This document shows positions 1,104-8,857 of a stretch of DNA of 11,800 bases, piece after piece. Positions within the stretch are counted from its first letter, which is position 1. Each line of letters opens with the position of its first letter. Source of the stretch: Pseudomonadota bacterium (GTDB lineage: Bacteria > Bdellovibrionota > Bdellovibrionia > Bdellovibrionales > SG-bin7); the NCBI GenBank assembly GCA_034439715.1, contig JAWXAY010000106.1, positions 1 to 11,800 of the forward strand, in the 5' to 3' direction. The notes under the pieces were generated by a model. It saw only the letters and a list, made by a program, of their open reading frames with translations, was not told where the DNA came from and did no database searches. Made by a program: the position numbers and the translations under genes.

Positions 1104-1667
1104 TTACTGAATATTTTGAACTTGAGCGATAAAGGGCAAATTTCGATAGTAGCCCTGATAATCCAAGCCGTAGCCCACGACAAATTCATTGGCGATTTCA
1201 AAACCTACATGATCGAGCTTAAGAGGCATTTGCACGGCTTCAGGTTTGTGAAGGAGCGCGATGGTCGAAATCGACTTTGGCTTACGAGCCTGTAACATTT
1301 GTACCAAGTAATTCATGGTTAGGCCCGTGTCCACAATGTCTTCGACTAAGAGAACGTGTTTGTCCTCAACAGGTGTTGAAAGATCCAAGGTCACTTTGAT
1401 TTCACCCGAAGATTTCATCGCATTATTGTAAGAAGAAACTCCTAAAAACTCGCAGGTTACGTCAGTATCGATATGTCGAATAAGGTCAGCAAAAAACATG
1501 ACTGAGCCCTTGAGTACGCAAATTGCGACAAGCGGTTTATCTTTAAACTTTTTGGTGAGCTCGGCACCAAGAGAAGCAACGCGCTTATTAATTTCATCTT
1601 CTGCGATGAGCGTACTTAATTTTAAAGTTTCCATGCCCCACTTATTTTTTTTCATCTGATCTTTCAC
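1104..1667 (-). CDS. hpt: Hypoxanthine(-guanine) phosphoribosyltransferase
   Basis: Motifs ICVLKGS, VSSY (flexible loop), VLLVEDIVDTGLT (PRPP-binding), FVVGYGLDY and YRNLPFI. The GTG start at 1667 overlaps the upstream gene's TGA (GTGA). Alternative in-frame ATG starts lie at 1655 and 1634. Confidence 0.95.
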   Translation of the reverse strand: MKDQMKKNKWGMETLKLSTLIAEDEINKRVASLGAELTKKFKDKPLVAICVLKGSVMFFADLIRHIDTDVTCEFLGVSSYNNAMKSSGEIKVTLDLSTPVEDKHVLLVEDIVDTGLTMNYLVQMLQARKPKSISTIALLHKPEAVQMPLKLDHVGFEIANEFVVGYGLDYQGYYRNLPFIAQVQNIQ

Positions 1668-2470
1668 ACGAACGAGTTATTCATAATTTCGCCAAATCCG
1701 CCGCCACCGGGAACGATGTACTGATTATCATTTAAACCGCGCTCTTCATTCCAAAAGGTACCCGGTACGGAATTTAAAACTTTATCAGAAGAAAGGCCTC
1801 GGTCAACTCGGAATGCATAAATATCTAAGTTGGGGGCTACCGCAAGTGCTTGTTTTAGGTATTCAGGTGTAACGATGAGATGCAAAGCTAAAAATCGCGT
1901 GGCAGCGCCTGCAATCTTAGTTTGGTAGTAATCAATAATTGTTTTAATGGTGCTACCTGTGGCGCCCATTGGGTCCGGAAAAATCACTAGACTTTGTTCT
2001 TTGTCGCCACCTATCTTTGCTCCTGCTATGTGAGAGCCTGTAACCTGATGATCTTGGTCGGTGGTACGTGAAATATGCACATGATCTTGCCGAACGTTCT
2101 GAGGATTCACGAGCTGGTTTAACATATCATAGCAAACCTGACTGGGAAGTTGCCCGGCACGGGCAAGACTCACGGTAATAATTCTTTGTTCTGGCGAAAA
2201 AACCTTACCTCGATACATTTTATTAGGATGAAGCTCGGTCATACGCGTGGGAACTTCTACCTCAATTAAATTAAGTTCTCGATTCACTACTTTTCGTAGT
2301 AGTGAGCCATATAGCAGATGGACCAGCTGGTTGACCCTGGGCTGAATCGTTTTAGGCGAGCAAAGCTCACAGAGGAGCGTGGTCGCAAAGGGGTCATTTA
2401 AAATATGTATACGGGGGCCATACTTATGAGGAATTTCGTTTAGTAAAAATTCGTTAGACATGCTGGCCAC
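1664..2470 (-). CDS. upp: Uracil phosphoribosyltransferase family protein (divergent, 268 aa)
   Basis: SLARAG corresponds to canonical PILRAG, DPMGATGST to DPMLATGGS, and GLNDNQYIVPGGGGFGE to LN..GYIVPGLGDAGD. The start is GTG at 2470, directly abutting the upstream stop, or ATG at 2461. Confidence 0.8.
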   Translation of the reverse strand: MASMSNEFLLNEIPHKYGPRIHILNDPFATTLLCELCSPKTIQPRVNQLVHLLYGSLLRKVVNRELNLIEVEVPTRMTELHPNKMYRGKVFSPEQRIITVSLARAGQLPSQVCYDMLNQLVNPQNVRQDHVHISRTTDQDHQVTGSHIAGAKIGGDKEQSLVIFPDPMGATGSTIKTIIDYYQTKIAGAATRFLALHLIVTPEYLKQALAVAPNLDIYAFRVDRGLSSDKVLNSVPGTFWNEERGLNDNQYIVPGGGGFGEIMNNSFV

Positions 2471-3418
2471 TTATTTAGAAAGAATTAGTATTACGAACTC
2501 TGACTCAGATTCTTTAAAGCGCGGGGAAAGCAAAATTTCGAAGGGTCCGCCTGTTAAGGGATAGTCCTCTCCCCCAGCCTTTCTGGATATTCCACCCGTT
2601 AGAAATAAACCACCCTTTAGGGGTATCTTTACCGAATCAGTGAGGCCCTGCGGCTCTACTGAAGCGATTTTTCGATCTGCAATAATTGGAATTTGTGACG
2701 AATATGAAAATTGAACTGCATTTTGACCTTCACTAGGCTCACCCATTTGTAACAATAAGTGCAGACCTAAATCTTGATCGTCTCCTCGAAAGTTACGGAG
2801 GCCCTTAAAAATTTCCCAGGGTTCCCCACTTTTTATAGTTTTGGACTCTTTTAACAATTCACGCACACCCTTTAGGTTTTTTAAAAATTCTTCTGAATTA
2901 TTGACCATTCCACCGTGCATAGTGCCGTCAGCAAAGCCTTCAAGAGGGGCAAAGTGTTCGTCGTAGGTATTTCTGGGTACCTCTAAAAAAATAATCTGCC
3001 ATGAGTTTGATGTTTTAGAACCTGAGCTTCCAGCTGTGGCACTTTCGGCAAAACTCTCTGCCTTTTTAATAGGAGCCGCAGTTTCGTTTAGTTTGGCTGC
3101 GCGAAGTTCACGTACTTTTTCGCCTGAATTTTTACCTGGACTATCGCTCGGCCCGTTAATATCGGGGGCGTTTTTTTCAGAATTATCCCAGGTAGAAAAA
3201 GTCTGGCTCTCATAATCTTTTGACTTGAACGTCTGTTGAATAAAAACAATACCGACTGCGATGACCAAAATAAAAGCAACAGTTCGGGCGCCAGGACTTT
3301 TGAGCAGTTTTTGGTGCATAGGAATAGCTTTGGGAACGAACTTTTGCATGTTCACTCCGCACTTAGCGCAGAACTGGTCTGGTGGTTGGGTAAACCCACA
3401 TTTCGGGCAATTAATCAT
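2471..3418 (-). CDS. Hypothetical membrane-anchored protein: N-terminal CxxC-x9-CxxC zinc ribbon, one TM helix, low-complexity linker, and a beta-rich C-terminal domain with possible secretin-like motif order
   Basis: CPKCGFTQPPDQFCAKC at aa 4-20; hydrophobic TVAFILVIAVGIVFI at aa 46-60; S/G/A/K-rich linker at about aa 70-139. It is a 315-aa ORF with a promoter-like element upstream and a zero-nt gap to upp. Confidence 0.8.
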   Translation of the reverse strand: MINCPKCGFTQPPDQFCAKCGVNMQKFVPKAIPMHQKLLKSPGARTVAFILVIAVGIVFIQQTFKSKDYESQTFSTWDNSEKNAPDINGPSDSPGKNSGEKVRELRAAKLNETAAPIKKAESFAESATAGSSGSKTSNSWQIIFLEVPRNTYDEHFAPLEGFADGTMHGGMVNNSEEFLKNLKGVRELLKESKTIKSGEPWEIFKGLRNFRGDDQDLGLHLLLQMGEPSEGQNAVQFSYSSQIPIIADRKIASVEPQGLTDSVKIPLKGGLFLTGGISRKAGGEDYPLTGGPFEILLSPRFKESESEFVILILSK

Positions 3419-3440
3419 TTTTCATAAATTCCCTGAATTG

Positions 3441-3469
3441 ACTATAACATATATGACTCCGCATCCCAA
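3441..3469 (-). promoter_or_regulatory. Putative sigma70 promoter of the zinc-ribbon/upp/hpt operon
   Basis: The minus strand reads TTGGGA (3469-3464), a 17-nt spacer, then TATAGT (3446-3441) with an extended -10 TG (TGtTATAGT). An AGGGA SD-like sequence at 3434-3430 precedes the ATG at 3418. Confidence 0.55.
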
Positions 3470-3506
3470 AAAAAGGATTAATAATTTATGCATCGTATTA
3501 TTTGAT

Positions 3507-3543
3507 GTGGTAGAAAGTGGTAAAAAATGGAGAATAGTGGTAG
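3507..3543 (+). promoter_or_regulatory. MraZ operator-like direct repeats (four units, exact 10-bp period)
   Basis: GTGGTAG (3507), GTGGTAA (3517), ATGGAGA (3527) and GTGGTAG (3537) lie upstream of mraZ. MraZ proteins are known to bind GTGG/TGGG repeats at 10-bp spacing upstream of their own gene. Confidence 0.8.
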
Positions 3544-3546
3544 ATT
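3518..3546 (+). promoter_or_regulatory. Possible extended -10 promoter for mraZ/dcw, overlapping the MraZ boxes
   Basis: TG-g-TAGATT at 3538-3546, with a weak -35-like TGGTAA at 3518-3523 (17-nt spacer). Overlap with the repeats would fit autorepression. Confidence 0.35.
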
Positions 3547-3586
3547 TATCACATAGGGAATAGTTTAATTAGTTAAGTCACTGTTG

Positions 3587-3609
3587 AAGCCCATGGATGG
3601 GCTTTTTTT
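3587..3609 (+). terminator. Intrinsic terminator-like hairpin with U-tract in the mraZ 5' leader
   Basis: Perfect 7-bp stem AAGCCCA-TGGA-TGGGCTT (3587-3604) running into T7 (3603-3609), 11 nt before the mraZ ATG. Confidence 0.6.
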
Positions 3610-3620
3610 AGAAGGCTAGG

Positions 3621-4091
3621 ATGGCAGAACTCAAATTTCGCGGACGCTTTGATGCCAAAATTGATGAAAAAGGGAGACTTTTATTACCGCTCGCGCTGCG
3701 TGAGGTCTTAAACGAATTTCCCCTGGTAGTAACAAATAACCAATCTAAAAAGGCGCGCTTTCTTGATGGCTATTCTTTTCCGTATTGGCAACAGCTTGAA
3801 AATCGCATTGATGGCTTATCTCCTTTGAAACTTGAGGTGCAGGCCTTTCAAAGATTTTATCTCGCGAATGCACAAGTTCTGTCGCCTGACGCACAAAACC
3901 GCATATTGCTACCTAAGAACCTTCGCGAGTTTGGTCAATTGGGTTCAGATGTCGTAATTATAGGTATGAGCGAGAAAATAGAAATATGGGAACAAAAGAC
4001 ATGGACCAAGCTCTATCAAGATTTGGCCAACTCATTTGAGGATACCGTTGCGCTGGTGGCCGACCTTGAACAGCAAAGGGATAAAAAGTGA
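3621..4091 (+). CDS. mraZ: Division/cell wall cluster transcriptional regulator MraZ
   Basis: Two SpoVT/AbrB-type repeats (FRGRFDAKIDEKGRLLLP and DAQNRILLP) plus VVIIGMSEKIEIW. It is the first gene before rsmH and is 156 aa. Confidence 0.95.
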   Translation: MAELKFRGRFDAKIDEKGRLLLPLALREVLNEFPLVVTNNQSKKARFLDGYSFPYWQQLENRIDGLSPLKLEVQAFQRFYLANAQVLSPDAQNRILLPKNLREFGQLGSDVVIIGMSEKIEIWEQKTWTKLYQDLANSFEDTVALVADLEQQRDKK

Positions 4092-7260: not shown

Positions 7261-7297
7261 ATAAATTAGAGTGAGCGTCCCCACGGAGAAAATATCG

Positions 7298-8857
7298 ATG
7301 AAGAATATTTTTTTTGCTTTTTCCATGATTATTCTGAGCGGCTGTCCTTCGAAAGAGGAGGCAACAGAAAATGGACCGCACATTGATTGGTATCAGGGTT
7401 CGATGGCTCAGGCGCTCGCAGAAGCGAAAAAAAACCAGAAGCCGCTTTTTGTGTATTGGGGAGCCGTATGGTGTCCCCCCTGTAATTTACTAAAATCAAC
7501 TGTATTTGCCGACCGAGTTTTTATTGAGTCGACCAAGCGGTATATTCGTGTTTATCTTGATGGAGATACCGAAAGCGCCCAACAGTGGGGAGAAAAGCTT
7601 AAAGCCACTGGTTATCCCACTCTCATGATTTTGAACTCGAGCGGCGAAGAAGTTGTGAGACTTTCTACCGTTATGGCCCCCCAAGAACTCGCTGATATGA
7701 TGGATTCGGCGTACGATAATCTTCGTCCGATCAATGAAACGGTAGCTAAAGTCTTGGAAAAAAAACCAGGAGCTATTAACACAAAAGAAGAGTGGAGTTA
7801 CCTGGCCAATTACGCTTGGACACAAGATGTCTATTATGCTGAAAAAAAACAAAAGCTATCAGAAATATTGGAGAGTCTTGAGAGTCGAGTTCCCATCACT
7901 TATTCAAAAGAAAAATCGCGTTTTTATTTGAATTATCTTTCAGCGAAGGTCACCGAACTGGGCGAGAATAAAAAACTGCCTAAAGAAATTCGCGAGAAAG
8001 GCGTAAAAAGAATCAACGAAATTCTTAATGACGAGGAGTTAATAAAGTACAACCTTGAATATTTGGCCTACTATTGTGTGGAATTAATTAAGGCCATTTA
8101 TCCTGATATGAGTCCGCTACGAGATGCGGTTATAGAGCGCTATCGTGCGGCGCTGGCCGCGGCGAGAGAGAAGTTACCACCGGGATACGAACGCATGATT
8201 ACCTTTTATCCGGTGATTGAGTTAGGCGAGCTTCTTTCGAGTAGCAATATGCGATCCTTATCTGAGAAACAGAGGGATGAAATCAAAAATGAAATGGTTA
8301 AGATCACAAAGTTAGCGAAGGGCGAGCACACTAAAATCTATACCAGTAATACCTCAACCTACATTTTGTCTAAAGCAGGGTTTTCCGATTTGGCTAAATC
8401 AATTTTAGAGGAAGACCTCAAACAAGGTATCAATGATTACTACACGATGTCGTCTCTCGCATGGGTTGAAAAAGAGGCTGGAAATAAAGAAAAGGCCCTG
8501 CAGTGGTCAGAAAAAGCTTATGGAGCGGCTAAAGGCAGCGCTACTAAAATTCAGTGGGGCTCGAAGTATCTGACAAGTTTGATTGAAACTTTACCAAAAC
8601 AAAAAGATCGAATTTTTGAAGAATTGGAAGGCTACTATTCACATCACCTCTCAGCCGCAGATTCTTTCTTGGGGCGAAACAAGGCAAGTCTTGAGAAGCT
8701 GGCTAAACAGGTCAAGAAGTGGGGCTTGCAAGAAAAATTTCAGCCAGCCATTATTGATCTAAAGAAGAAAATGCTCGATGGCTGTAATCAGGAAAAAGAA
8801 AAGAAAACTAAGTATTATATTAAGGACTGTGAAAAATATTTCAAAAAGCTAATTTAA
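7298..8857 (+). CDS. Predicted lipoprotein with N-terminal thioredoxin-fold domain (WCPPC) and long alpha-helical/TPR-like C-terminal region
   Basis: ATG 7298 has a GGAG SD at 7285-7288 and gives the signal peptide MKNIFFAFSMIILSG-C (lipobox LSGC). Thioredoxin features: KPLFVYWGAVWCPPC (WCPPC at 7469-7483) and the cis-Pro loop GYPT. TPR-like segment YYTMSSLAWVEKEAGNKEKALQWSEKAY. The ORF-track GTG at 7271 is an alternative start. Confidence 0.85.
   Translation: MKNIFFAFSMIILSGCPSKEEATENGPHIDWYQGSMAQALAEAKKNQKPLFVYWGAVWCPPCNLLKSTVFADRVFIESTKRYIRVYLDGDTESAQQWGEKLKATGYPTLMILNSSGEEVVRLSTVMAPQELADMMDSAYDNLRPINETVAKVLEKKPGAINTKEEWSYLANYAWTQDVYYAEKKQKLSEILESLESRVPITYSKEKSRFYLNYLSAKVTELGENKKLPKEIREKGVKRINEILNDEELIKYNLEYLAYYCVELIKAIYPDMSPLRDAVIERYRAALAAAREKLPPGYERMITFYPVIELGELLSSSNMRSLSEKQRDEIKNEMVKITKLAKGEHTKIYTSNTSTYILSKAGFSDLAKSILEEDLKQGINDYYTMSSLAWVEKEAGNKEKALQWSEKAYGAAKGSATKIQWGSKYLTSLIETLPKQKDRIFEELEGYYSHHLSAADSFLGRNKASLEKLAKQVKKWGLQEKFQPAIIDLKKKMLDGCNQEKEKKTKYYIKDCEKYFKKLI

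Follow-up and report, generated by a model that had tools for sequence, protein, structure and literature searches.

Secretins such as PilQ, GspD/PulD, InvG, phage pIV and BfpB are outer-membrane ring channels with N3 domains; in the ring, subunits are joined through strand 3 to strand 8 and through strand 4 to strand 7. N0 and N3 domains are described in every secretin (PMC12114550), the single N-domain of P. aeruginosa RcpA being a partial exception (PMC10499894). Here we consider a gene at positions 2471..3418 (minus strand) of a window of 11,800 nucleotides, i.e. the whole stretch of DNA analyzed, from a genome of the order Bdellovibrionales (GCA_034439715.1, contig JAWXAY010000106.1). Its product of 315 amino acids is an orthologue of B. 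bacteriovorus HD100 Bd3217. An earlier note, made from the sequence alone, had read this product as a zinc ribbon, a transmembrane helix, a linker and, from residue 140 on, a domain resembling a degenerate secretin barrel. Residue 140 does begin at position 3001, and the zinc ribbon, a single hydrophobic segment, the linker and a folded C-terminal domain were all found in the sequence or in a predicted model; the possibility raised by the note, an inner-membrane-tethered protein with a secretin-fold domain, has the support of sequence profiles and of two structure models.

The described system closest to this family is the Tad secretin RcpA/CpaC (PF00263 with PF13629 and PF04972; PDB 8ODN). 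The C-terminal domain of the Bd3217 family shares with it the two-sheet core, the strand order and conserved glycines, as well as the motifs V...E, G(L/V), G(G)L, LF.S..F and S(E/Q)(F/L)V(I/V). Unlike RcpA, the Bd3217 family lacks a signal peptide, N-terminal periplasmic domains, the lip and a tail, keeps half of the amphipathic loop, and has a zinc ribbon followed by an apparently uncleaved helix; the window gene is located outside a tad locus. The other secretins named above have the same topology as the family domain and are farther from it in sequence.

The earlier note had judged the identity to secretins, by eye, to be low; the window protein taken alone is at chance level, with the family far above chance. 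A Pfam search with the window protein gave no secretin match (the PF00263 cut-off was not reached), an NCBIfam search gave nothing for its C-terminal domain, a PDB sequence search gave no match at E ≤ 10, and a profile of 56 secretins scored it at E = 77; it was not among the four PF00263 matches of its own genome. At the family level the same 56-secretin profile found 64 of 274 domains at E < 0.01 and none of the 274 reversed sequences, and with PF00263 a value of E ≤ 0.1 was reached by 4 of 125 members, the lowest being 7.7e-4. HHalign comparison with two RcpA sets chosen by PF00263 only gave probabilities of 97.0% (E 9e-11, 189 columns) and 96.8%; a set mostly chosen by the family profile gave 98.75%, with controls at most 64%, and other secretins gave 89.6% (PilQ) and 11% (GspD). 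RcpA secretins were also the closest relatives of the family domain in a hidden Markov model (HMM) ranking within the window's own genome, in a profile search of PDB (8JVB, E 2.3e-4) and in a search of long proteins (the RcpA-type P0193, E 3.7e-3). Homology to the secretin core extended over the whole length of the domain in the HHalign and reciprocal HMM tests. In the profile-profile alignment all seven segments quoted in the earlier note were placed, in the same order, on the secretin elements they had been named after; one of them, compared with VPLLGDIP..LG.LF, matched in its second half only. The C-terminal domain is thus almost certainly a diverged homologue of the secretin core, and its closest secretin, judged by sequence comparison, is RcpA.

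Both structure models, which fold as compact single chains, point in the same direction. In the first, a folded domain of residues 137–314 (2477..3010, minus strand, as are all parts of the gene given below), predicted to be periplasmic, has a predicted local distance difference test score (pLDDT) mostly above 90; the second has pLDDT 94.6 and a predicted template modelling score of 0.91. The domain has two four-stranded sheets in secretin topology, and in the family none of the eight strands of the core has been lost or reordered, with the conserved glycines also retained (G206 in 89% of members, G218 in 94%, G275 in 78%). As to the structure search that the earlier note had suggested as a check, ranks 1–12 in VIA-align against solved structures were all secretins for both models. 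The first non-secretin match in both structure searches was 9KGY, a designed monomeric beta protein, and the topology can therefore stand alone. Matches among predicted structures (ESM Atlas) had TM-scores of 0.59–0.70; only ∼120 of the 180 domain residues could be superimposed on ring-form secretins.

The N-terminal part of the protein is of a different kind. The zinc ribbon, CPxCGFxQPxDxYCAxCG (residues 4–21, 3356..3409; cysteine spacing C4-x2-C7-x9-C17-x2-C20), predicted to be cytoplasmic, matched PF13248 weakly (E 0.001, below cut-off). Among 146 proteins selected by the C-terminal domain alone the ribbon was present in 98, with the four Cys as well as P, F, Q, P, D, A and G at 100%; most of the 48 proteins without it have their start at the Met just behind the ribbon or farther downstream, resembling short start calls. 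This conserved Met24 (3347-3349, minus strand) is often called as the start, so that database entries often lack the ribbon. The only hydrophobic segment of the window protein, residues 42–60 (3239..3295), is a single predicted transmembrane helix (helix 42–65 in the predicted model), apparently uncleaved; hydropathy of this helix was ≥1.5 in 127 of 128 full-length family members. By a motif test only, neither Cys nor A-x-A was found at the helix end in any of the 128 (0/128 for each), and by the same test a helix that follows a zinc ribbon at about residue 42 is neither a cleaved signal peptide nor a lipoprotein signal. We infer from these sequence features an N-in topology with an uncleaved anchor. 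A low-complexity linker follows (residues 66–135, 3014..3223), modeled at low confidence (pLDDT mostly 46–62 by block); in the family it is 60–130 residues long (median 90), with Ala, Ser, Thr, Pro and Glu making up ∼60%.

When the proteins of 301 genomes of the phylum were searched, matches to the Bd3217-type gene came from 66 of 67 other genomes of the same order, from the one other genome of the same class and from 0 of 232 others, though some of these matches span the zinc ribbon only; one genome had a second short match. A search with the domain profile gave 521 clusters at 50% identity, and all 80 named genome records with the gene were from Bdellovibrionales, Bdellovibrionia or Bdellovibrionota, except three with unclassified titles. 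No relatives were found in viral contigs. Within the family the C-terminal domain diverges to ∼20% identity while the zinc ribbon is near-invariant. The HD100 orthologue, CAE78035.1/WP_011165573.1 (342 amino acids), was equated with Bd3217 through gene order, the length of 1029 nucleotides and accession order rather than by direct mapping of the sequence. The same-order genomes that were checked each retain four ordinary secretins; therefore, the Bd3217-type gene is an extra gene and not a replacement. At two loci (G274:C4:33350-33883 and G370:C18:73841-74374) a second open frame of ∼590 codons lies over the domain match; in G274 the translated gene has a normal length of 314 amino acids (L025), and the long frame is probably an overlapping one.

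Other secretin elements were found lost or altered. The membrane-inserting lip and half of the amphipathic helical loop are missing from the family. The motif F-G-F-x-W, which in the 56 secretins marks the lip after the first strand, is absent from the family consensus, and the models have in this region (residues 149–185, 2864..2974) a helix, a beta hairpin and a helix (helix 149–159, strands 160–164 and 167–172, helix 175–181; the same pattern in the second model). The start of the amphipathic loop, VP...IP with Pro in 94% and 71% of the 56 secretins, is replaced by acidic residues, while F-x-I-L-x-S-x-x-F of its second half is retained; in the window protein the remnant is the LG.LF.S..F half at residues 291–302 (2513..2548). 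One RcpA subfamily likewise has a worn amphipathic loop. The last strand, which ends with TP in the 56 secretins (T 89%, P 98%), has E-F in the family, and the domain is almost without a C-terminal tail. Both gate hairpin regions are present and shorter (median 28 versus 38 and 25 versus 29 residues). No folded periplasmic N-domain (N0/N3, or the RcpA N-domain/BON) was found, as the earlier note had stated; its place is taken by the low-complexity linker, which is without secondary structure. The edge strands look altered as well: of three consecutive hydrophobic positions in strand 3 one is retained, amid many Lys and Glu, and in strand 7 a Pro is found in 65% of the family (weighted) versus 0 of the 56 secretins. 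In covariation analysis of 274 sequences the extra strand 167–172 was linked to strands 8 and 7; the canonical ring pairings of strands 3–8 and 4–7 showed no covariation, a weak negative at this depth.

With a score below the Pfam cut-off, neither signal peptide nor N-domains, hardly any tail, and an altered lip, loop and strand end, a Bd3217-type protein is quite likely not a secretin channel. The models suggest that the domain is probably a soluble, monomeric beta-sandwich. The earlier note had left two options, an envelope-spanning ring and a repurposed non-channel domain; with the lip replaced, half of the amphipathic loop gone, N-domains missing and edge strands charged or carrying proline, the second fits better and the first less well.

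In the window the gene order is a LysM lytic transglycosylase, hpt (hypoxanthine phosphoribosyltransferase, 1104..1667, minus strand; TIGR01203 above cut-off), a upp-like uracil phosphoribosyltransferase (1664..2470, minus strand; PF14681, E 3.6e-15) adjoining the Bd3217-type gene downstream in a probable operon, then the gene itself, and then the divergent genes of the dcw cell-division cluster, mraZ (3621-4091, plus strand), rsmH, ftsL, ftsI, a thioredoxin-TPR protein, murE and murF; the names mraZ, rsmH, ftsI, murE and murF were assigned from sequence. The gene and the mraZ/dcw cluster stand head-to-head on a common intergenic region of 202 bp (3419..3620), in which a promoter scan gave no signal above chance. 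Of 72 genome loci whose upstream DNA extended far enough, 71 had mraZ or rsmH in divergent orientation at ≤700 bp from the gene; on the downstream side, upp or hpt lay within 300 bp at 55 of 69 loci. The gene is thus encoded next to mraZ/rsmH and upp/hpt, not with a type II (T2SS) or type III (T3SS) secretion system, a pilus or phage export, though it may serve a partner system encoded at a distance; in agreement with the earlier note, no secretion or pilus genes were found in the window (list of open reading frames, Pfam and NCBIfam searches), nor was there in the window a sigma factor or regulator gene beside it.

Some further features of the locus were observed. The nearest upstream gene was rsmH at 56 loci and mraZ at 15; mraZ before rsmH is missing in most relatives. 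The upp-like protein of the window is long (268 amino acids) and divergent, far under the TIGR01091 cut-off; it is present at the locus in some relatives and missing in others. Between ftsI and murE there is a gene for a probable lipoprotein of 528 amino acids with thioredoxin (WCPPC) and TPR-like parts (7271-8857, plus strand), which has the same position in the dcw clusters of L058 and L060.

Two other HD100 genes, Bd0112 and Bd0867, we take to encode the secretins RcpA and PilQ. Expression of Bd3217, given as reads per kilobase per million (RPKM), was 2.1 in attack phase versus 58 in growth phase (PMC3627812, Table S1), a pattern shared by ftsI and rsmH (PMC3627812), while the pattern of Bd0112 (2760/8.6 RPKM, attack/growth) and Bd0867 (1171/82) was the opposite (PMC3627812, Table S1). 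Thirty minutes after entry Bd3217 was unchanged (PMC2797640). In strain 109J the gene between rsmH and upp is EP01_RS01345 (PMC6561027).

We propose, at a probability of about one half, that this conserved Bdellovibrionales gene encodes a one-pass inner-membrane tether or binding module connecting a cytoplasmic partner to the growing envelope. The near-invariant zinc ribbon would dock on a conserved cytoplasmic protein, the uncleaved helix would keep the protein N-in within the inner membrane, and a linker of 60–130 residues would allow the domain to reach across much of the periplasm. The former lip, as two helices and a hairpin, would fold back over the outer sheet and its strand-8 edge; the result would be a soluble, probably monomeric beta-sandwich that binds a partner in the envelope as the filament grows and divides. 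The head-to-head arrangement with the dcw cluster at 71 of 72 loci and the growth-phase expression were counted for a role in envelope growth.

Several observations weigh against this proposal. The synteny with dcw may be just conserved gene order, and the genes downstream are purine and pyrimidine salvage enzymes. The growth-phase class is the default one, with 67% of expressed genes, and the assignment of Bd3217 to it came from 7 versus 59 reads (PMC3627812). Insertions in EP01_RS01345 were tolerated with no predation defect (W 2.6–2.8 in four screens, the neighbours being mostly at 1–3; PMC6561027), so any role in division is non-essential in 109J. There is just a small positive-inside signal (net charge of +2.6 before the helix versus +1.2 after it; flanking Lys plus Arg 3.3 versus 3.1). 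At the Pro position of strand 7 the window protein itself has Thr. The covariation is weak, with 25 pairs exceeding z 4.5 where shuffles gave 4–10, and position 175 covaries with 270 and 195, which are at opposite sheet edges; this could be an inter-subunit contact.

Those 175–195 and 175–270 couplings would suit a domain whose copies still assemble laterally into a secretin-like ring, held at the inner membrane as a periplasmic barrel or collar and not piercing the outer membrane or only touching it. No core strand has been lost from the set of eight, their order is unchanged, the conserved glycines persist, polar residues still make up the would-be lumen face, and a linker of this length could bridge much of the periplasm; however, there is no N3 or BON domain in the family, the edge strands carry Pro and charges, the canonical pairings gave the weak negative described above, and expression of Bd3217 is low (PMC3627812). 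We regard such a ring as unlikely, and no less unlikely its elaboration as a fifth, hidden secretin-domain protein of Bdellovibrionales, an inside-out collar that the zinc ribbon would control from the cytoplasm for intraperiplasmic growth or multiple fission. That insertions are tolerated in a screen where pilus genes were needed (PMC6561027) speaks against the protein being an indispensable component of a pilus or secretion channel. A layout of zinc ribbon, transmembrane helix and extracytoplasmic domain is otherwise common among anti-sigma-like one-pass receptors.

One could accordingly read the protein as a transmembrane sensor, its periplasmic domain binding a ligand or an envelope protein and its ribbon relaying the signal to a cytoplasmic regulator. 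This, a shade less plausible than the ring, agrees with the general layout of such receptors, with a ribbon staying near-invariant as the domain drifts to ∼20% identity, and with a gene loss that was harmless or mildly favourable in the transposon sequencing (Tn-seq) screen (PMC6561027); yet no sigma factor or regulator gene adjoins it in the window, the neighbours at most loci are dcw and salvage genes, and a long disordered linker would be ill-suited to conformational signalling. It is still less probable that a pseudo-secretin chaperone or decoy pairs its free sheet edge with nascent RcpA or PilQ, holding or placing subunits at the future poles until progeny mature. The closest relatives of the domain are the genome's own RcpA secretins, Bd3217 is expressed in anti-phase with the presumed secretin genes Bd0112 and Bd0867 (PMC3627812), and RcpA is absent in growth and re-localises in progeny (10.64898/2026.07.08.737194); on the other hand, pilus mutants were strongly defective in the same screen in which EP01_RS01345 mutants were not (PMC6561027), no pilus genes adjoin the gene in the window, the conserved neighbours are unrelated, and both sheet edges look protected. 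Least credible is that an eight-stranded beta-sandwich came to resemble secretins without descent from them: sequence profiles, independent of the models, find secretins in both directions, and the motifs are in register across the whole domain, so that by sequence this explanation is largely refuted already.

Turning to precedents for the proposed tether, we saw in the ESM Atlas clusters of BlaR1/M56 peptidase with Secretin (Verrucomicrobiota), of Planctomycetota hypothetical proteins and of secretin-like proteins of 149–216 amino acids; these clusters were named automatically, were compared by predicted structure only, and differ from the Bd3217 family in architecture and phylum. Predicted models of the Verrucomicrobiota BlaR1/M56 and Planctomycetota proteins match the family domain at TM-scores of 0.62–0.70, as well as or better than canonical secretins do. 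The BlaR1 fusions, as modeled, suggest that inner-membrane proteins elsewhere also carry secretin domains, and the Atlas domains may form a wider class of non-channel secretin cores. We also liken the layout of zinc ribbon, transmembrane helix, linker and periplasmic domain to that of Myxococcus GltJ (AgmX) and TonB-like tethers, which we take to have a zinc ribbon of a different family; the Bd3217 family has a secretin core instead of TonB-C. No paper was found in the literature on the secretin-like Atlas clusters. A text search of the literature, with subscription papers, bioRxiv supplements and the proteomics tables of PMC11025332 outside its scope, turned up no account of Bd3217 or of a protein of this kind, and the available parts of 10.64898/2026.07.08.737194, 10.1101/2025.01.14.632903, PMC10499894, PMC12114550, PMC9888234 and PMC13689555 do not mention one. 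No earlier description of a tethered reuse of the secretin fold was thus found; since the Atlas clusters suggest secretin domains on inner-membrane proteins in other phyla, it is a variant of a known fold family and not categorically new.

Separately, a protein of 134 amino acids with a predicted signal peptide (L278:1714-2118 = G000:C100:61713-62117, minus strand) was seen to carry two tandem copies of the secretin motif 'S.P.I...DGE.A.I'. It matched the 56-secretin profile at E 5.6e-6 and PF00263 at E 3.8e-5 (below cut-off); the secretin profile match was short (24–34 columns; GspD 92%), with no match to the Bd3217 family. Relatives of 130–210 amino acids were found in 27 of 81 same-order genomes searched. 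From its sequence this is possibly a second, small soluble family resembling the secretin core.

In the usual view a secretin is necessarily a ring channel of the outer membrane. In the Bd3217 family the core has apparently been separated from the N-domains and lip and fastened to the inner membrane, and it is retained in this form across a whole order of predators, unseen by Pfam. If monomeric, the domain would offer a soluble secretin core that occurs in nature, on which the unassembled subunit and the requirements for ring formation could be modelled; if ring-forming, it would be a new kind of envelope machine. Either way, the unannotated Bd3217 gains a fold and a testable role in a genetically tractable model organism with viable insertion mutants.
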